The notes beneath the pieces are model-generated. The model ran no database searches, was not told the DNA's origin, and was given only the letters and a program-made list of their open reading frames with translations. The translations under genes were made by a program, and so were the position numbers. DNA of 44,382 bases, from the IMG/VR virus record IMGVR_UViG_3300036783_000149, positions 1-44,382 of that record, one strand, 5' to 3'. Positions 20,698 through 38,356 of the stretch are shown here, one piece after another. Positions within the stretch are counted from its first letter, which is position 1. Every line of letters starts with the position of its first letter. This stretch comes from a virus (taxonomy: Duplodnaviria > Caudoviricetes).

Positions 20698-21693
20698 TCA
20701 ATTAAGAAACATGGTGGAGAAAGTTTTGCGGTTGAGTTCACCAGGGTCTTTGATAAATAAAGGTAGTGGTGTCAACCGGAACCCAGCCGATTCGAGACTG
20801 GCAAAATTGCCGCGCGGGTTCATGTGATCCACGGTGCCGGCGTCAAGCAGTAAAATCTTCTGATCGAAATTCTCTAAGGACTCGAGTAAATCCCGCTGCT
20901 TATCAGTAATCGACTTGCCGAATACAGTAGTCCCATAGATGTCCTCGCCTTCACCCAAGTAATTGATTTTGAGGGCATCGAATGGTCCCTCGCATACCAC
21001 CAGGGTGCCGCGCGCCTGCTTAAGCTGGTCGTACCATAGGATGGTGTCCTTGATCGTCACCAAGGCCGGCGGCGACTTCTCCTCGTATAGGGATAAGGTG
21101 TCATAGCGGATCGGTGATCCGCCGCAGTGCCTTCCGGTCCATGTTACTAATTTGCGATCTAGTGTCACCGGGAAGATGATGCGGCCATGCCACCTACCAC
21201 CATCGGCGCAGCCTCTCAGGTTGAACCGGCGCGATAGGTAGGGAATATCCTCGGGCTCAAAGCCGCGTCTTGACATATAAGTCATGAACATCCGCCCGCT
21301 ACCACTAGGGCGAATCGGTGAGAACGAATCGGGAAGTCTAAGATTCCGCTTTGGTTCCATAGGCTCTTCCGGGGGATCGAACATTGCCCGAAGCCTATCT
21401 AACATGTTCTCATCGGAGGGTAATTCAACCTCTCGTTCTACCAATGAGTCGGCAAAAGCAAATGAGCATCGCAGCAGCCTTTGTATTAAGGGCTGCGGTG
21501 CGATGCCCCGGTGGCTTTCAATACGAAAACAGTGCCATCCTTTTCCGAGTAATGAAATATGGAGATTATATCCAGTGTCGTTCGGACACCAGCAACAATT
21601 GATTCCTACGTTATTCGCAGTGACATGATAGCGACTGGCTGTCGTATATTCTATGTTGTGTTGACTGAGGAACTTGATCCAATCAAATGACAT
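20698..21693 (-). CDS. DNA primase (Zn finger + Toprim)
   Basis: CCWC...HCF, RIIFP, GR, VVCEGPFDA, LLD, KDPG. Confidence 0.88.
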   Translation of the reverse strand: MSFDWIKFLSQHNIEYTTASRYHVTANNVGINCCWCPNDTGYNLHISLLGKGWHCFRIESHRGIAPQPLIQRLLRCSFAFADSLVEREVELPSDENMLDRLRAMFDPPEEPMEPKRNLRLPDSFSPIRPSGSGRMFMTYMSRRGFEPEDIPYLSRRFNLRGCADGGRWHGRIIFPVTLDRKLVTWTGRHCGGSPIRYDTLSLYEEKSPPALVTIKDTILWYDQLKQARGTLVVCEGPFDALKINYLGEGEDIYGTTVFGKSITDKQRDLLESLENFDQKILLLDAGTVDHMNPRGNFASLESAGFRLTPLPLFIKDPGELNRKTFSTMFLN

Positions 21694-22216
21694 GCTTTGC
21701 GCTCTTCCTATTCTTAACTCTGGAAATTAGATCAACAGGAACTCCAAATTTGTCCGCGAAATAAACTCCCAGTCCATAAGTTGATGTTCCTTTCTCCTTA
21801 GCAGTATTAAATACACTTCTTATTTCTCTAATCTGTTCGCTTGTTAGCCATCTTTTGTTCAATCCAGTGTCATAACCGTGTTGTATTTGTTGAGCAGGGG
21901 TTACCCATTCTAGATTTAAGTAAACACAATCTGTTTTGACCCCATTTTTGTGATTTACCTCAGCATCTGCGAATGGTTTTGGTCCAAGAAAATGTTCTGC
22001 TACTAATATATGTACGTACACCTTCGTCCTATCAGATAGGGCAACACGGGTATATGGATTCGATTTATTAGTCAGTGGTTTTAGTAGTTTTCCTTTTAAT
22101 GATCTGGGATAATAGCCACCATGAGGGTCGATCCTATCTAGTGAGCGAACCCTTCCTAAATTAGATACTTGATACGCGCCTTCGTAGCCTTTTATATCAA
22201 CCCAGATTTCCTCCAA
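21683..22216 (-). CDS. NUMOD4-HNH homing endonuclease (free-standing)
   Basis: EIW.DI.GYEG.YQVSN.GRVRS; VH.LVA..F; VNHKNG.K...NLEW; TTG start behind AAGGAGG. Confidence 0.9.
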   Translation of the reverse strand: MEEIWVDIKGYEGAYQVSNLGRVRSLDRIDPHGGYYPRSLKGKLLKPLTNKSNPYTRVALSDRTKVYVHILVAEHFLGPKPFADAEVNHKNGVKTDCVYLNLEWVTPAQQIQHGYDTGLNKRWLTSEQIREIRSVFNTAKEKGTSTYGLGVYFADKFGVPVDLISRVKNRKSAKHVI

Positions 22217-22226
22217 TTTATCCTCC

Positions 22227-22257
22227 TTGGGTGTGGTAGTTCCCCTACCACACCCAA
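22227..22257. promoter_or_regulatory. Perfect 13-bp hairpin abutting the HNH RBS
   Basis: ttgggtgtggtag-ttccc-ctaccacacccaa. Confidence 0.6.
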
Positions 22258-22264
22258 TCAAAAC

Positions 22265-24127: not shown

Positions 24128-24988
24128 CTACCGAAACGGCGGTGGAATATAACCGCTGTGTCCCAACTTCTCAATTGGAAATGGAGCACGAACCGGTTGA
24201 CCAGTCCTTTCCAACCATATTTCATTCATATGGCTGAGAAAGATTTTGACAGCATAGCGCCGCGCCCGCGCATCAATATGTCCCGGCGGTAGTTTGCCGG
24301 TACTGTAATGCTTGTAGGCTTCAGTGGTCTTGCCGACTCGGGTCATCCATTCTGCGGCGATTTCACTACGCTTACCGCTTTCGCTCATATTGACTTCAAA
24401 CTCTTTGCGCTGGCGGTATAGCTTACCGTAAAAGCAATCATCCCGCCCGCTGAACTTCATAAACGATTGTCCAGAATGCCAGCAGATGGTTTTGAGTCTA
24501 GTGTTGTAGGGACGAAGCTCGCCCTTGTTCCACTTCTTTTGGTCTTTGCCGGCGATGCCAGCAAATTGGTATATCTTACCGGCAGTAGGACGCGGGCCTT
24601 CAAGATGAGCAATGATGCCGGCAGAGATGACCGGACCAATACCAACAACCTGCCGCATCCAATCCCCCATGACATGGCCACGGGTGAATTGATCAAGTGA
24701 CCGTTTGATTTGTCCTTCTAGAGCACTCGACTGCTCAAACAACCAATCGAGTAGGACATGCGGTTCCGGGTGTTGGCCTTTGACATCGGCACCTTTGTCC
24801 AAGGCAAGTCCTTGGCTGTTTGCCCGTTTGCGTTGATTCTGGATGGCGTAGTATTGATCAACCAGAAATCGAGCTTCACCAATACCCATTACACGTGATG
24901 CTGTTGCCAGATCACGCGACAATCGTTTAATGGAAGGAAGATGCTCCGTCCATGTATCATCATCAAATTGTTGGTCTTCAAAGGTCAT
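24128..24988 (-). CDS. Nop-domain/IS110-related RNA-guided protein, TasA-like (no nuclease domain)
   Basis: 286 aa from MTFEDQQ (AGGAG RBS); coiled coil, GIGPVISAGII, FAGIA, YN..LK..CW, GHID.RARR..VK.FL; no RuvC DEDD domain, no catalytic SG motif; flanked by arrays. Confidence 0.8.
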   Translation of the reverse strand: MTFEDQQFDDDTWTEHLPSIKRLSRDLATASRVMGIGEARFLVDQYYAIQNQRKRANSQGLALDKGADVKGQHPEPHVLLDWLFEQSSALEGQIKRSLDQFTRGHVMGDWMRQVVGIGPVISAGIIAHLEGPRPTAGKIYQFAGIAGKDQKKWNKGELRPYNTRLKTICWHSGQSFMKFSGRDDCFYGKLYRQRKEFEVNMSESGKRSEIAAEWMTRVGKTTEAYKHYSTGKLPPGHIDARARRYAVKIFLSHMNEIWLERTGQPVRAPFPIEKLGHSGYIPPPFR

Positions 24989-25000
24989 TGTACTTCTCCT

Positions 25001-25260
25001 TGGGTTAACGCACTTCGTTGGGTTCTCGCTTGGGCAATGGCTCGCGCTCTGCATTAGGTTCTCGCGAAGGCTTGGGCTCGCGCATACAGTAGAGTTCTCG
25101 CTTATAGAATGGCTCACGCGGCGAATCGGGTTCTCGCGGGTAAAGGGTTAGCGCCTTGCTTCAAGTTCTCGCTTCGAGTTTGGCTCACGCGGTGGTATGA
25201 GTTCTCGCACTGCATCGGGCTCGCGCTACCTTTCTGAGTTCTCGCGGTGTTCAAGGCTCC
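25001..25260 (-). repeat. TIGR-like dual-repeat array, upstream (7 units)
   Basis: gttctcgc at 25022, 25058, 25094, 25130, 25165, 25201, 25238, alternating with ggctc(g/a)cgc; 35-37 nt period. Confidence 0.88.
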
Positions 25261-30689: not shown

Positions 30690-31019
30690 TTAACGTAAAG
30701 CCGGATCGTTCACATTATCGAGGCGAAACTTCGCGACTGATACGACTTGCGAGGAAAAACGATCCGGGAAGTGTAATACCGCTTTCTCGCAAGTCCAATC
30801 AGACAAGCCCATTTCACACAGCTTGCGGAACCCGGATTGTATCGTCCCGCTTAATACAAGACGAGATATTCCCGGAACCGTTCCTAGATTCATGAGTGTT
30901 CTCATGTAGAAAATTGGAGTGGGATAACCCGCTTGTATTGACTGACGGATACCTTCTTCTATCAAAATATCGAGAAGGTCAGACGAACCCCGCATTTCCC
31001 TTAGCCATTGATCAAACAT
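30690..31019 (-). CDS. Hypothetical protein
   Basis: GF..L...G....T.E..VL....F......A..RL motif. Confidence 0.7.
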   Translation of the reverse strand: MFDQWLREMRGSSDLLDILIEEGIRQSIQAGYPTPIFYMRTLMNLGTVPGISRLVLSGTIQSGFRKLCEMGLSDWTCEKAVLHFPDRFSSQVVSVAKFRLDNVNDPALR

Positions 31020-31054
31020 CGCTAACTCCTCACATTACACATTCGATATGAATG

Positions 31055-31104
31055 CGCCTAGTAGCAGCCCGCTTTGTTGTTAATTATGCGGGCTGCATGA
31101 GGCG
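31055..31104. promoter_or_regulatory. Intergenic hairpin (processing site or terminator)
   Basis: cgcct...gcagcccgc / gcgggctgc...aggcg. Confidence 0.45.
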
Positions 31105-31111
31105 AACTCAA

Positions 31112-33529
31112 CTACTGCAAGATCACCGCCAACAACTCCACCGGCAACTGCCGGCGGTATTTGTTGCACAGTTTCTTGCCGGCCAACGCCTGCTTTTGAG
31201 ATAGCCGGGGAGCCGCTGCCAAGCTATGTCCAAAGTTGGTATCGAGTTTGTTGAACCCGGCACCATCCTCGGAGTAGGCACCATCACACCGGGCGGCAAG
31301 AAACTTGATCCCGGTATGAATGGCTTCGACTTGTGCGTCTGTCAGGGCATTGGGATCGATCGGCTTAGCAACAACCGGTGGCGGGCCTTTCACAACATCG
31401 ACTTTGGGAACAACCATTCCCTCGTCCAATGCCGAGTCGATCACTGCTTGTTTAGAAACAATGATCGCAGCCATCCGGCTATCAACACTGCCATCAAAGA
31501 CCAGATGTTGTACCAACACCGAGTCCTTTTGACCTATTCTGTGGCATCGATCTTCCGCCTGACTCACATTGCCGGGAACCCAATCGAGTTCCGCAAACAC
31601 AACATGGGACGCAGCGGTAAGCGTGATACCAACACCAGCAGCTTGAATGCTACCGATAAACAAACGGCATGATGGATCATTCTGGAAACGCTCCACTTCT
31701 GCCTGACGCTTGTTTACTGGAACTTCACCGGTAACAATGGCGCTACCGGGAAATGCCTCGGCGATAGCACGTCCTACATCGTGGTGATGTAGCATTACCA
31801 CTAACTTATTGTCACCATCCTCCAATACCTCATTGATGAAATCAACAACATACGGGATTTTGGCGACCGCAGTAGCATGCCGTACCGCAGACATATCCTC
31901 AAACGCGATCTTGGTGGCTCCCTTTAACTCCTCAACCGCGCGCTGATACAATTCCTTATCCGCTTCGGCTTGCGCCTTGTTCACAGCCGCTTCAAAATGC
32001 GCGATCTTGGCCAACTGCTCTTGAAACCGCTTCTCGGCGGCAATGGCTTTGACTGCCGCACCCGATGGAGTTAGGACAACAATCTGCCGGCGCTTGGCAG
32101 GAAGCTCGGTTAGTACATCCTGCTTCAACCGGCGCACCATGAAGTTGGCACGCAGCTTCATTTGTAGTTCGCCGAGATTAGAGTTCCCGGTAAAGTCCCA
32201 ACCATGCTTGCCTTGATAGGCCGCGCAATACCGTTTGGCATAGCCCATGAAATTGCGGCCAAGCCCCTGCGGATCGATGGCTTGTAGCAATGGCCACATT
32301 TCAATAGGCCGGTTCACGATTGGCGTACCAGTCATAAACACCTTGCGCTTTGCCGCAAGCGGTGCAATGCGGTCCTCCGGGTCTTTTGCCCATTTGCCCA
32401 ACAGGCATTGTGTGCGCTGCGCCTTCGGGTTCTTTACCTTGTGGGCCTCGTCAACTATTAATATTGACAAGTCAATCGTATCTATGATATCCCGCCAAGC
32501 AACGAGAATATCATAATTAACGATTAGGATAGCAACTTGGCTAGGCCCGCCCGTGTAAGTGACGCGACACTCCTTGCTGCCTTCAAGAGCATCGAAGAGG
32601 GAGCACAAATCTACCAAATCATCAGTGAACTTGGGATTGGTGTCCATACCTTTCGGTATCACTACAAAAGGCTGCGAGGATATACCCTGCGTTTGTACCG
32701 CAGAAGAACTCCGATCTTCTGTGTTCCTGATGATCCCTGTGTCTTGGCCTATATGGCGGGGATCATTGATGGGGAAGGTTCCATTGTCACCAATGGGAAC
32801 CGACATTGGCAAGTCTCCTTTGCTTCGACCGACAAAATCTTGGTTGATTTTTTCGACCGCTATGGAGGACTTTACCATACTAGGCTCGATTCCTCTCTTC
32901 GTGGAGGGACTATCCAATCCGTCAAAAGGCAATACCTTTGGCGAATTGGTAGAACTGTTGATGTTCTCAACTTTTTGCGAGCTATTCGCCCCTTTTTGGT
33001 TATTAAAACGGCGAAGGCTGATAGTGCTATTGCGGATTGCCTCGCTCGGCTTGCTCCCAAGGATGGCAATAGCTGAAGGACGGACCAGCCACTTGTTGAG
33101 TTCGTTCTGCCAATTGAGTTTCAAGGTAGCGGGACAAACAACTAGCACACTCTTGATGCTGGGATCGGCGTTGATAACGCCAATCGCTTCGATGGTTTTG
33201 CCAAGTCCCATCTCATCCGCGATCAAAGTGTTCCGCCGTTCCATTGCATAGGCAATGCCGGCTTTCTGGTAAGGCAGGTATTCAAGACCAGCCGGGGCCG
33301 GGATCGATATCGTGGCATTAGTAGCCTGCGAGGCTTCAACCTGCTTGGCGACATTGCCTGCCGCATCCGGGTCCAACTTTGCCGCCACCGCCGGGTCTTT
33401 GGTGTACCATACTTTGCGGTCACCATCGAACCAGAAGCCAAGGCTTTTAACAAAGTCCTTGGTTTCAAAATCGAAAGGAAAAGTGACAGTCCAAGTGTCA
33501 CCCTCTTTGTTGATATTAATCGGCTTCAT
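31112..33529 (-). CDS. SNF2/SMARCAL1-like helicase with an insert of about 175 aa formed by an antisense homing endonuclease gene
   Basis: HARP-like N-terminus; ADEMGLGKT, VDEAH, MTGTP, RRLK, GVGITLT, QAEDRCHRIGQ. Confidence 0.9.
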   Translation of the reverse strand: MKPININKEGDTWTVTFPFDFETKDFVKSLGFWFDGDRKVWYTKDPAVAAKLDPDAAGNVAKQVEASQATNATISIPAPAGLEYLPYQKAGIAYAMERRNTLIADEMGLGKTIEAIGVINADPSIKSVLVVCPATLKLNWQNELNKWLVRPSAIAILGSKPSEAIRNSTISLRRFNNQKGANSSQKVENINSSTNSPKVLPFDGLDSPSTKRGIEPSMVKSSIAVEKINQDFVGRSKGDLPMSVPIGDNGTFPINDPRHIGQDTGIIRNTEDRSSSAVQTQGISSQPFVVIPKGMDTNPKFTDDLVDLCSLFDALEGSKECRVTYTGGPSQVAILIVNYDILVAWRDIIDTIDLSILIVDEAHKVKNPKAQRTQCLLGKWAKDPEDRIAPLAAKRKVFMTGTPIVNRPIEMWPLLQAIDPQGLGRNFMGYAKRYCAAYQGKHGWDFTGNSNLGELQMKLRANFMVRRLKQDVLTELPAKRRQIVVLTPSGAAVKAIAAEKRFQEQLAKIAHFEAAVNKAQAEADKELYQRAVEELKGATKIAFEDMSAVRHATAVAKIPYVVDFINEVLEDGDNKLVVMLHHHDVGRAIAEAFPGSAIVTGEVPVNKRQAEVERFQNDPSCRLFIGSIQAAGVGITLTAASHVVFAELDWVPGNVSQAEDRCHRIGQKDSVLVQHLVFDGSVDSRMAAIIVSKQAVIDSALDEGMVVPKVDVVKGPPPVVAKPIDPNALTDAQVEAIHTGIKFLAARCDGAYSEDGAGFNKLDTNFGHSLAAAPRLSQKQALAGKKLCNKYRRQLPVELLAVILQ
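32537..33076 (+). CDS. LAGLIDADG homing endonuclease with N-terminal HTH, nested antisense in the helicase
   Basis: LAYMAGIIDGEGSI motif; Y.W.I; FL.AI.PFL..K..KA; TTG start with AGGA upstream. Confidence 0.85.
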   Translation: MARPARVSDATLLAAFKSIEEGAQIYQIISELGIGVHTFRYHYKRLRGYTLRLYRRRTPIFCVPDDPCVLAYMAGIIDGEGSIVTNGNRHWQVSFASTDKILVDFFDRYGGLYHTRLDSSLRGGTIQSVKRQYLWRIGRTVDVLNFLRAIRPFLVIKTAKADSAIADCLARLAPKDGNS

Positions 33530-33647
33530 TGTTCTTACTCCTCTTGCGGCGATATATCTTGCCGCTCGGTTTCACCTTGTGGCGCAGGACGCGGAGCGCC
33601 CTGGCTACAGGGTTCCGCTTAGTCAGTTTGGCTTTCATGTTCCTTTC

Positions 33648-33857
33648 CTAATTGGTGATCACTATGTTGTTGTAGTGATTCACCACTGCCTGAAGCTCAT
33701 GCTTGATCCGCATGAGTGTTTGGCGTTCGATGGGATCGCCACTGGTCCTGGCCAGTGTGTCAAGTTCCGTGGCGCGGTTTCTCAAATACGCGATGACATG
33801 CTTTCGCAAAGCATCGGCACTGATGTTTTTGAGATGGACGGGTTTCTTGCTTTGCAT
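33648..33857 (-). CDS. Hypothetical protein
   Basis: Start MQSKK; coupled. Confidence 0.55.
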   Translation of the reverse strand: MQSKKPVHLKNISADALRKHVIAYLRNRATELDTLARTSGDPIERQTLMRIKHELQAVVNHYNNIVITN

Positions 33858-34093
33858 CACTTCCCCTTTGCTACAAGCTCCTTGAGTCCGTCGAGCAGGT
33901 TTATCACATTGCTTACGGGTTTCCATTCAACAACACCACGCGCCTCGCGGCCATGTTGTTTGCAGTCATCGCAGAAACCGGATGCAAAGCCATTGGCCTT
34001 TGTTCCAATCCATGCCGCCGGTTTACCACATTCATGGTTGAATGTTCCGGCTTCTGCGTTGTGGCATTTACCGTCTTCGGCATAGGAATTCAT
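33857..34093 (-). CDS. Small Cys-rich protein
   Basis: CHN...ECG.PA...FCDDC; AGGAGG RBS. Confidence 0.65.
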   Translation of the reverse strand: MNSYAEDGKCHNAEAGTFNHECGKPAAWIGTKANGFASGFCDDCKQHGREARGVVEWKPVSNVINLLDGLKELVAKGK

Positions 34094-34102
34094 AGGTGCC
34101 TC

Positions 34103-34444
34103 CTAACAACGACCACGGAGAATACTAGAACAGTTCATCCAAAATCCGCGTTCTTCACAACGAAAGCCGCGCGGAACCCGTGGAACACAGTGCTTCTGCG
34201 CCCAACTATGTTCAGGCAACACCACTAGAAGGTTCATTGCCCCAAGCACTTCATCGTCTGGAATATTGCAGATTTCAATTGCGTCGGGGTCATCGTTGTT
34301 ACGAGCGCGTATTAAACACTCCATACCCTCTTTGTTTTCTTGGAGTTTAAACCAGCTAGTGGCTATTGGAACACCTTCGCTTTTAGCTGTTCCTGTTGTT
34401 GCCAACAAGGCTGTGAAGATGATTGCATATTTACGAATGTTCAT
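34103..34444 (-). CDS. Putative secreted Cys-rich protein
   Basis: MNIRKYAIIFTALLATTGTAKS signal peptide. Confidence 0.6.
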   Translation of the reverse strand: MNIRKYAIIFTALLATTGTAKSEGVPIATSWFKLQENKEGMECLIRARNNDDPDAIEICNIPDDEVLGAMNLLVVLPEHSWAQKHCVPRVPRGFRCEERGFWMNCSSILRGRC

Positions 34445-34500
34445 AACACTTACTCCACACAGAGAAGGCCGGATGCAGGATTGCACCCGGCTGTTTGTAG

Positions 34501-35382
34501 TTAAGCGGCCTCGGCCACCTCCTCTTCTTCTTCTTCCTTAGTGAGGAAGTCCAAAGCGGCTTGTGCTTTCGAGGCAGCGGTAAACACCGCTTTCTTGTCA
34601 CCCTTCAACACTTCCAGCCAATTATTGATATAGCTGGCGTGATCGGGGCGCGGCTCGTTAGCCAAGCCAAGATGCGCGCACAAGAATGCGCTACCAAGCT
34701 CGGCCACCAACTCCTCAAAAGCATAGGCATTGTCACCAAACCGCCGGCCAAACTCACGCGCACAGCGTGACTCGTGACCAGTCCAATGGACAGTTTCATG
34801 CCCGCGAGTCGCATAGTATGACTCGGCGTCCTTGAACTGCTTGAACTCGGGCAACACGATCTTGTCCTTGCTCGGCGCATAGAAAGCCCGGTTGCCACCG
34901 TGTTGAATATCGGCACCAAGAGCCTCAAAGAATGCCTCGGCATTCTCGATACGCTGCTCGATTGGCAACACCGGAATTTCCTTCGGTGTATAACCGTCAA
35001 CCTGAGCACTGTTGAAGACGTTGTAGTAACGCAGCATCATGCCCTTCTTGTCGGTTTCCTCACCGTTCTCATCTTTGAGTTTGTAGTTTGTCTGTTTCCA
35101 GAAAACTACCATGGTGCTTTTCTCGCCCTTACGGACGGTAGCACCCTTGGCTTGCCAAGCCTTGTACGTACCCCACACATTGGAGTCATACCCGGCATTC
35201 TGTGCGGCGATCATCAACAACCACACATTCATGCCGCGATAGCGGCGACCAGTGGTAATATTGATGGGATCGACATTCATGCCGCCGCTAACATTGTGCC
35301 ACGGCATTACCCATTTACCGGCACCGGCTTCAATCGACCTGATAATATGGTCGGTGACGGTTTGGGCGATATCAAAGGCCAT
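34501..35382 (-). CDS. ardC: ArdC-family antirestriction protein (ssDNA-binding + zincin-like)
   Basis: W.MPW, Y.G.N, W.TY, V.KGEK, VFN..Q, AFY.P..D.I, HE..HWTGH..R, YAFEELVAELGSAFL, HASYI..W. Confidence 0.92.
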   Translation of the reverse strand: MAFDIAQTVTDHIIRSIEAGAGKWVMPWHNVSGGMNVDPINITTGRRYRGMNVWLLMIAAQNAGYDSNVWGTYKAWQAKGATVRKGEKSTMVVFWKQTNYKLKDENGEETDKKGMMLRYYNVFNSAQVDGYTPKEIPVLPIEQRIENAEAFFEALGADIQHGGNRAFYAPSKDKIVLPEFKQFKDAESYYATRGHETVHWTGHESRCAREFGRRFGDNAYAFEELVAELGSAFLCAHLGLANEPRPDHASYINNWLEVLKGDKKAVFTAASKAQAALDFLTKEEEEEEVAEAA

Positions 35383-35424
35383 TTCACTTACTCCTTGAAT
35401 TTGGATGTAGAAGGGTGGGGGGTA

Positions 35425-35832
35425 TTAATCCCCCCACGGGGCGTTTTTGCATTCCGGCATGTCCCAAACATCTTTGACATTGCGCTTGCGCTTGATCATC
35501 TCACCAAGCTTGTCGGCGTACTCTTCAACTTGTTTGAAGAGAGCCAATTCCGGGACATTGCCTTCGCTGCACTGGTACAAGAGGCACTGAAGTGCCTTCC
35601 AAGCGGCGACCGCATCAACACAATCAGGAACCTTGGAAGGCTCGCTGTATGTGTAGGTGGCCATGTGATCATATTCGATCACTTCACGCGGATACCGCTG
35701 TTGAACAGCTAGGATGTTCATCGCTATTAGCGACAACCCCAGCTTGGTTTGATCTTCATGCGGCATTTGCATCAGCCACAAACCGTATACCGAACGATTG
35801 ATGCAATCGGTACCGACAACAAAAGCAGACAT
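35425..35832 (-). CDS. Conserved early phage protein
   Basis: MSAFVV, N..AV..RY, CL.YQCSE, terminal PW. Confidence 0.75.
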   Translation of the reverse strand: MSAFVVGTDCINRSVYGLWLMQMPHEDQTKLGLSLIAMNILAVQQRYPREVIEYDHMATYTYSEPSKVPDCVDAVAAWKALQCLLYQCSEGNVPELALFKQVEEYADKLGEMIKRKRNVKDVWDMPECKNAPWGD

Positions 35833-36802: not shown

Positions 36803-38356
36803 TCAACTTAAGATCGAGGAAGGGTCTTTGACCATCGCCTCAAACAAGTTTGTTGCAGCCGTGTGAAATAACAAGATTTTACTATCCACCGAATCCTTCA
36901 TCACCAGATCATAGATAAAGCACTTGTTCTTTTGTCCTTGCCGCCATATTCTGCGCTCGCACTGGTCGCGGTCAATAGCGCCAACCGGTGACTCATAGAA
37001 GAAACAATAACTCGCGGCTTGTAGGTTAAGACCATAACCGCCCTTCTTCCATGACACCACTAGAATGTTGGAGTCTGGATCACTGTTGAACTTGTTCTTT
37101 ACCCGGTCCCAATCCTTGGTGCTGGCATTCAACTGACCAAATGGCAGTTTGGCTTTCTTTAATGCTTTGGCGATTTGCTCACCGGACCACATGAATTCAT
37201 GAAACACCACCGCTTTGCGATCTGGTGGTAATTCTTGTAGTAGTTCCACTAATAGGTCGAGCTTGGGATTTACCGGGAACTCTATTTCGCTTTTCTCACC
37301 TAATTCATCATCGATCACCCCAACATACCCGGATGATATCTGCCGCATTCGCAGGAATGCATTCTGCATCAACCGGACATCTTTCTTAGCATCGATGATG
37401 TCCTGTACGCATTTCTTGTAGTACACGGCTGTGTCAGAGGGGAAGTGACATTGCTTTCGTACCTTGACCATCTCTGGTAGGTCGGTCACCTCATCGACAC
37501 TGAAATAAATAGAGCGATTGGATAAGAACTTCTGGAAGTCCTCTTCGCGTCTTTTGTTGAAGGTGTATTCCATACCACCGAAGTATCCCTTCTTAGAACG
37601 AAAGAACACCTCGCGGAATAGTCCTAGTGTTGGTCCAAATGATTGTCCTTTGTCTACAAGGTAGAATTGTGGCCATACTACCATAGGATCGCGCCCGAAT
37701 AATCTTCCGGCTAGGGCATAGCGCACTGAGGCATTTCCCATAGCGGCGCGACATACTTTAAAGGCGAGACTCTGATGATTGCCTACTCTAGTGCTTTCAT
37801 CGATCACAAAGGCATCAAACTTCTTCCGCATATACTCGATATGCTCGGGTACCGGTGTATATTGTCTCTTGGCACTACCGCGCCGGGGTACAAGCTGGCT
37901 GACCATTGTACTAAAGCCGGTATGCGTGGCAACCGCAATCCCCTGCTCCAGTTCTAGGAGTAGTTCCCACTTCTCCTGACCACTGCCGAGTAATAGGGTA
38001 TAGGGGATTTCGATATCCCACTTAATTATCTCATCTTTCCAACCTTCAACAACGGTATCGGCATTGGCGAGGATTAGTGCGGTGTTAGTGCGCCCTGACT
38101 GTATACGCCATTTCAGTAGCTCTAGGGTCAGGCGAGTCTTACCAGTTCCCATATCATAGTGAAACAGGTAATAAGGAAATGCCACGCCAAGGATGAATCC
38201 TACCTTCTGGGCGCGGTTTAAGGGTTCGTTGAAGATTGGTGCCGGCTTGATCGATGCCAGCATGTCATCGAGTTCGTTATCGGGGAGTGCCTTCAACCAA
38301 TTGAAGTTCTCGGCTGGTCGCGCAAGGTACTCATCTATGGAGCGGGCTGCTATCAC
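36803..38356 (-). CDS. SNF2-like helicase
   Basis: DMGTGKT, IDES, LRMRQISSG, GLNLQ, QCERRIWRQGQ. Confidence 0.88.
   Translation of the reverse strand: MIAARSIDEYLARPAENFNWLKALPDNELDDMLASIKPAPIFNEPLNRAQKVGFILGVAFPYYLFHYDMGTGKTRLTLELLKWRIQSGRTNTALILANADTVVEGWKDEIIKWDIEIPYTLLLGSGQEKWELLLELEQGIAVATHTGFSTMVSQLVPRRGSAKRQYTPVPEHIEYMRKKFDAFVIDESTRVGNHQSLAFKVCRAAMGNASVRYALAGRLFGRDPMVVWPQFYLVDKGQSFGPTLGLFREVFFRSKKGYFGGMEYTFNKRREEDFQKFLSNRSIYFSVDEVTDLPEMVKVRKQCHFPSDTAVYYKKCVQDIIDAKKDVRLMQNAFLRMRQISSGYVGVIDDELGEKSEIEFPVNPKLDLLVELLQELPPDRKAVVFHEFMWSGEQIAKALKKAKLPFGQLNASTKDWDRVKNKFNSDPDSNILVVSWKKGGYGLNLQAASYCFFYESPVGAIDRDQCERRIWRQGQKNKCFIYDLVMKDSVDSKILLFHTAATNLFEAMVKDPSSILS

Follow-up and report, generated by a model that had tools for sequence, protein, structure and literature searches.

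An antisense gene pair in a phage replication region

The window analysed here is a 44,382-nt stretch of DNA, the whole of a 44-kb phage contig that encodes a DNA polymerase, a primase, DnaB, a clamp loader, a UvsX-like recombinase and SbcCD. Every open reading frame (ORF) with a family match in the window lies on the minus strand, with one exception. Within an SNF2-family helicase gene, the opposite strand carries the gene of a single-motif LAGLIDADG homing endonuclease, which coincides with an insert that the helicase reads in frame (Table 1). One soil metagenome run spans the whole window, while runs X2 and X3 gave no coverage of the insert.

Table 1. Positions of the antisense gene pair and its parts in the window
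Feature	Coordinates	Strand	Remarks
SNF2-family helicase gene	31112..33529	-	805 aa, one stop-free frame; Pfam SNF2-rel_dom (E 2.6e-32) and Helicase_C
N-terminal segment of the helicase (residues 1-158, with motifs Q, I and Ia and strand 152-156)	33056..33529	-	
Insert in the helicase frame (residues 159-331)	32537..33055	-	Helix 163-184 predicted, remainder mostly pLDDT <50
C-terminal segment of the helicase (residues 332-805, with motifs Ib-VI and the C-terminal domain)	31112..32536	-	
Homing endonuclease gene, single-motif LAGLIDADG	32537..33076	+	179 aa, in codon register with the helicase
Nuclease three-helix N-terminal domain (residues 9-47), probably HTH-like	32561..32677	+	AlphaFold; sub-cutoff HTH matches in P0003, P0128 and P0173
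LAGLIDADG motif LAYMAGIIDGEG (residues 70-81)	32744..32779	+	All but M73 invariant in 6/6 family members
Shine-Dalgarno-like AGGA	32526..32529	+	Antisense to helicase Ile334-Leu335; 7 nt 5' of the TTG
Possible co-converted flank (helicase residues 345-363)	32441..32497	-	Upstream of the nuclease gene

The nuclease ORF starts at a TTG opposite helicase Gln331 and stops at a TGA opposite Ser152, placing the two genes in exact register. Its remaining 178 residues all have codons compatible with the helicase strand, and the stop and last six codons overlap helicase residues 152-158. The nuclease has 17 codons for Leu and 11 for Ser, and TTA, CTA and TCA are not among them (0/28), against 9.4 expected from the usage of 7,415 codons in 24 other window genes (P = 7.7e-6), each of which contains 2-49 of these codons. 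Under a conservative null that takes the third-position A frequency from the nuclease itself, P is about 0.09 for the 115-codon core; the low third-position A may itself reflect the dual-frame constraint. Dual-frame selection is shown for the window copy only, as other carriers are known as protein. The register and the codon avoidance had been pointed out in the preliminary description, which also credited the nuclease with its own ribosome-binding site and stop. Both observations hold, the AGGA lying ahead of the TTG and the TGA terminating the ORF. The exact nuclease sequence is absent from a 15-billion-protein collection in which the helicase sequence is present.

Several other genes in the window are of related interest. 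A second SNF2-like helicase gene (36803-38356, minus strand, 517 aa) has no comparable insert. Next to the primase gene is a free-standing HNH endonuclease (21683-22261, minus strand), and a 'transposase' gene by PHROG lies at 24128-25117 (minus strand). An ArdC-like anti-restriction gene (34501-35382, minus strand) has just two antisense stops in 292 codons and is overlapped by a plus-strand ORF of 270 aa (34900-35712); codon bias is probably the cause of both.

Predicted structures of the two proteins

The nuclease matches Pfam LAGLIDADG_3 with an E-value of 6e-4, below the curated cutoff. Its AlphaFold model (pLDDT 81.6, from 6 sequences) comprises three N-terminal helices and a core with the predicted LAGLIDADG alpha/beta fold. 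The best Foldseek matches are I-CreI structures (E 1.7e-5), with an rmsd of 2.8 across 124 columns to an I-CreI-type structure. The LAGLIDADG helix carries its acidic end residue, and D78 and E80 are invariant in all six family members. Of the HTH plus LAGLIDADG architecture originally proposed, the LAGLIDADG half is borne out by the I-CreI-like fold, whereas the HTH half corresponds to three predicted helices and sub-cutoff matches in relatives.

The helicase has motifs Q, I, Ia, II, III, V and VI of the SNF2 family and two RecA lobes, and its model matches SNF2 ATPases in structure comparison. Motif Ia and the DExH motif are 230 aa apart, compared with about 62 in insert-free homologues. Alignment thus puts the net gain at about 168 aa, in agreement with the extra stretch of about 175 aa first reported. 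In the AlphaFold model (111 sequences), both strands flanking the insert have pLDDT >90 and most of residues 186-327 fall below 50, a low confidence that is partly expected because only 6 of the 111 alignment rows cover the insert. The helicase looks intact, and the insert looks like a loop modelled at low confidence.

Among 109 insert-free homologues, at least six exceed the median length of this loop by seven residues or more. P0083, P0086, P0096 and P0027 are insert-free helicases with 11-20 extra residues there, three of them with the Leu typical of carriers (see below). These loops may be in-frame remnants of a lost nuclease, but none matched the insert HMM.

Related elements at one helicase site

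With helicase residues 70-420 as the query, a search returned 4,650 matches, the best 120 of which were examined, including the window's own protein. Among the 119 others, five (P0020, P0021, P0024, P0046 and P0051) carry a stop-free stretch of 165-175 aa in the same loop, a proportion that overstates carrier frequency because the query contained the insert. Having been found as proteins, these carriers are stop-free by construction. Read antisense, their inserts are compatible with the LAGLIDADG motif at 11-12 of 12 positions, compared with 7-10 in the 114 insert-free helicases; their identity to the window insert is just 15-26%. In all six carriers, the helicase frame runs continuously into both halves.

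Searches with the nuclease alone found relatives at 43-51% identity, and the ends of 153 nucleases were scored against a helicase profile. The tails of P0001 (27.7 bits) and P0238 (26.6 bits) decode in register as helicase, the next best scoring 5.6, as do the N-terminal stretches of P0128 (44.7 bits) and P0173 (19.1 bits), with the next at -2.3. Three or four further nucleases therefore appear, from their coding ends, to occupy the same helicase site, P0173 being the weakest case. By the same profile scoring, P0002, P0003 and P0129, which are among the closest relatives, have short ends without a helicase signal. None of the nucleases in the collections is the exact antisense partner of a helicase insert there, so about ten distinct elements are represented.

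Other searches added little. A profile of the insert gained just P0276, a near copy of P0046, and scanning contigs of viruses, metagenomes and genomes for the nuclease recovered distant relatives only. Two junction patterns led to three loci, none with a nuclease match (0/3). A viral LAGLIDADG motif scan revealed no helicase context in 120 loci of about 250, the GenBank phages searched yielded no match, and the best identity in a helicase DNA scan was 37%. Intein-like inserts occur at other sites in the related helicases P0020 and P0082, and P0020 combines the antisense insert with a later intein-like segment.

Mobility and the co-converted flank

In a tree of 121 helicases built with the loop excluded, the carriers are scattered, requiring six changes for seven rows, of which at least four are forced by strong branches. 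The window helicase lies inside a clade with a support of 100 that includes 10 insert-free proteins, and its sister, P0023, is insert-free. Carrier monophyly was rejected (AU p = 1.2e-4) in a test of 36 tree rows with five carriers, a subset picked after the first tree was seen and from which P0020 (a truncated long branch) and P0276 (a near copy) were omitted. That the carriers are not one clade fits homing. Their distribution is patchy and horizontal at one site, although repeated loss could, strictly speaking, also produce it. The window nuclease clusters with P0001, P0002, P0003, P0128 and P0129 (SH-aLRT 92).

Sequence next to the insert hints at what moves with it. Over residues 345-363, the window helicase shares 32% identity with its own clade and 46% with other carriers (small n), whereas in every other helicase segment its own clade is closer, bar one 12-residue tie. 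Three columns ahead of the NYD motif, all six carriers have Leu, compared with 10 of 109 insert-free homologues, which mostly have Val there. In the window, this Leu codon provides the AGG of the nuclease ribosome-binding site, and the carrier Leu is inferred to be a ribosome-binding-site codon in the other carriers too. Both the residue 345-363 pattern and the carrier Leu suggest that the flank travels with the element. Overall, the nuclease is real and under selection, and it is probably mobile.

A translated loop as the probable state of the insert

The element is probably a mobile nuclease that does without splicing and is tolerated as a translated loop of its host enzyme. The helicase would be translated through the insert, which would form a mostly disordered surface loop of about 170 residues. 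With translation of the helicase probably continuing across the element, the nuclease likely needs no splicing. It would be produced from its own antisense transcript, with its ribosome-binding site inside helicase Ile-Leu codons, and would dimerise as I-CreI does. It would then cut the insert-free helicase allele of a co-infecting phage, and repair would copy the element plus some flank. Selection on the helicase would subsequently bar TTA, CTA and TCA from the nuclease.

A consensus scan of the nuclease strand turned up no promoter of the sigma-70 type. Upstream of the nuclease, a TTGACA at 32464 is followed 13 nt on by TATGAT (32464-32488, plus strand), a spacing that is not sigma-70-like. 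The perfect TTGACA is created by an unusual helicase change, D355S.

Could the insert be removed or skipped?

The alternative that survives best, though still unlikely, is that the insert is lost from the RNA or passed over during translation, whether as an unrecognised intron, by enzyme-assisted splicing or by ribosome bypassing, with the open frame keeping ribosomes on and avoiding polarity. At the protein level, signs of splicing are missing. Pfam finds no family in any of the six inserts at E up to 1, including the Hint splicing domain, and the insert region of the helicase model has no folded splicing domain. Intein termini (C/S at the start, HN/HQ then C/S/T at the end) are lacking at the insert junctions. 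At the RNA level, no Rfam intron match occurs in 31000-34500 at E up to 10, although Rfam is weak on such introns, having matched only 3 of 14 intron-borne cases, all sub-threshold. The nuclease gene fills the insert from end to end, with no ribozyme core outside the ORF. This agrees with the preliminary description, in which the insert had neither intein termini nor room for a group I intron. Exact excision would damage the fold, because the 3' end of the nuclease gene overlaps the core helicase strand 152-156.

In favour of removal at the RNA level, the insert RNA folds with z = -4.8, with a predicted helix joining the insert ends. However, this was rejected as a splicing sign, since the value falls within the genome's range, with 5 of 31 control windows reaching z <=-4. 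The junction duplex is not significant either (97 of 300 shuffles equal it), and the frame is continuous in all six carriers. Bypassing of the T4 gene 60 type involves a stop after the take-off site, which is absent here. A search for terminal inverted or direct repeats or a target duplication found nothing beyond short chance pairs.

Another argument for RNA removal comes from nucleases in introns. Viral LAGLIDADG genes were fetched by motif and grouped into 86 clusters (120 loci of about 250). In-register antisense stops are absent from the 115-codon core in 17 of these clusters, against 1.0 expected. Orientation was compared in the 43 clusters that had sufficient flanking sequence and a GC content no higher than 0.5. 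Nucleases antisense to the flanking gene, mostly in group-I-like introns, leave the host frame stop-free in 12/12 clusters, while sense-oriented ones do so in 0/26; the five clusters of mixed orientation all contain stops (5/5). Ten of the 12 antisense nucleases belong to one clade, so the 12 have one to three origins and a Fisher test of the contrast overstates independence. Going by the exon sequence, the gene interrupted in most of the 12 is capsid-like, and we take it to be N4-gp56-like. Of 14 loci tested, three have a group I match, sub-threshold in each case.

Antisense nucleases of this kind include L114, L115, L118, L125, L133, L150, L151, L157, L159, L166, L168 and L172 (around position 1500). 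L010, L016, L020, L026 and L029 are likewise antisense in group-I-like introns with the host strand open. Intron-borne antisense nucleases keep the host frame open although GC is just 34-41%, and in L166, L133 and L016 the open frame continues into the next coding stretch. A different arrangement is seen in L059 (2140-5071), where a LAGLIDADG gene and a weak group I match lie between two-piece tmRNA matches, a possible intron-split tmRNA.

The comparison shows that selection on nucleases can preserve an open frame on the host strand. Since intron-borne antisense nucleases do so, an open frame alone is no proof that an insert is retained, and confidence in the translated-loop reading goes no further than probable because an open frame also occurs with probable RNA splicing. 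Direct descent of the window nuclease from the intron-borne antisense nucleases was considered and rejected, as these sit in another part of the tree. Avoidance of Rho-dependent polarity may be the cause of these open host frames. As a tentative pair of claims, doubtful when taken jointly, antisense homing genes might generally keep the host strand translatable in register even if they are spliced out, as ribosome-free RNA would otherwise be terminated. Such a rule might also pre-adapt them to dropping the ribozyme or intein, making the helicase family a splice-free end state with a disordered-loop footprint and a ribosome-binding site in a host amino-acid change.

Is the helicase still functional?

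A similarly unlikely explanation is that the insert is translated but cripples a dispensable helicase, the open frame either sparing downstream genes from polarity or persisting because the invasion is too recent for decay. The helicase is possibly dispensable, since the phage has the second SNF2-like gene, and the genome also encodes DnaB. The sole sharp deviation in the helicase, D355S, affects an Asp just before motif II that is 98%-conserved elsewhere. In addition, the host methylase of ShiLan, the closest published parallel, is described as non-essential (PMC11855218, section 4.1). Conservation argues the other way. The helicase retains 134 of 137 highly conserved columns, and its three deviations equal the median of insert-free homologues. 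In the four other full-length carriers, 1-6 columns differ, and the end branch of the window helicase (0.19) is hardly longer than that of its insert-free sister P0023 (0.17). A pseudogene had been named from the outset as a possible objection; the open frame and the conserved columns speak against it.

Far less probable is a two-chain helicase, made whole and then cut in the loop by proteases or by self-processing. The loop is long and rich in Ser, Gly, Pro and Asp and would be exposed, and split enzymes around a homing gene do exist, as in Aeh1 nrdA-mobE. On the other hand, a Hint domain and intein termini are absent from all six inserts, and the insert's conserved positions mirror nuclease codons.

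An assembly inversion or an accidental antisense ORF, which would fit with a single run (perhaps the DNA's own source) spanning the whole stretch, has next to nothing left to recommend it, being refuted by independent carriers: five other helicases and three or four other nucleases from different collections share the site and orientation, which also settles the inversion check raised at the outset, the fold is I-CreI-like, and terminal inverted or direct repeats are absent.

Comparison with known systems

The nearest relative in behaviour is the ShiLan element, a stop-free, non-splicing HNH insert encoded in frame 3 of the same strand in actinophage DNA methylases (Arsenault, Gosselin, Gogarten 2025, PMC11855218). 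That insert was proposed to loop away from the host fold and is patchily distributed, with no bench test presented (PMC11855218). The window element shares the stop-free host frame, the overlapping-frame nuclease and the lack of an intein or intron signal. However, ShiLan is a same-strand HNH nuclease in a methylase, whereas the window element is a LAGLIDADG nuclease on the opposite strand, in exact register, which needs its own transcript and resides in an SNF2 ATPase lobe. It thus works like ShiLan but is not of the ShiLan family. In the main text of PMC11855218, the word 'reverse' is absent, and 'strand' is used in connection with double-strand cuts.

Antisense LAGLIDADG genes have also been described inside non-canonical inteins, namely in an actinophage minor capsid protein, Synechocystis dnaX and a Chloroflexus SpoVR-like protein (10.1101/2025.01.02.630785, which cites Gorbalenya 1998). 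As described there, these resemble the window element in having a translated insert, an I-CreI-like fold and ongoing homing inferred from trees. They differ in that a splicing domain excises the insert, whereas the window insert has no detectable splicing domain or intein-like termini.

These precedents bear on the splice-free antisense strategy put forward in the preliminary description. Its mechanism is the best-supported reading, given a one-site family whose hosts do not form a clade, but the claim that it represents a new strategy goes too far in view of ShiLan and the inteins. A literature search, with most subscription papers outside its scope, found nothing on a splice-free antisense LAGLIDADG gene in a helicase, nor on an open-frame rule for antisense orientation. 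Accordingly, the combination of an antisense LAGLIDADG gene, no splicing domain and a helicase host is not found in print within that scope, while the kind of strategy itself is published.

If the translated-loop reading is correct, homing nucleases can inhabit the catalytic lobe of a conserved enzyme without RNA or protein splicing, and such nucleases are hidden from gene callers. The single ShiLan precedent would widen to another nuclease class, strand and host, and the element would be a naturally occurring example, open to testing, of two genes coded in full antisense across 180 codons. Separately, the orientation rule seen in introns is a cheap lead on transcription-translation coupling there.

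Other replication genes harbour a nuclease gene or a gap without splicing, as in Aeh1, with mobE in nrdA, and in the T4 gene 60 bypass. In those systems, the host is split into two polypeptides or the ribosome hops, whereas the host frame in the window is continuous. Finally, the nuclease is like I-CreI, I-MsoI and I-CvuI in its fold and single motif. It differs from the I-CreI type in sequence (about 17% identity), in its added three-helix N-terminal domain, and in residing in a helicase coding frame instead of an intron.
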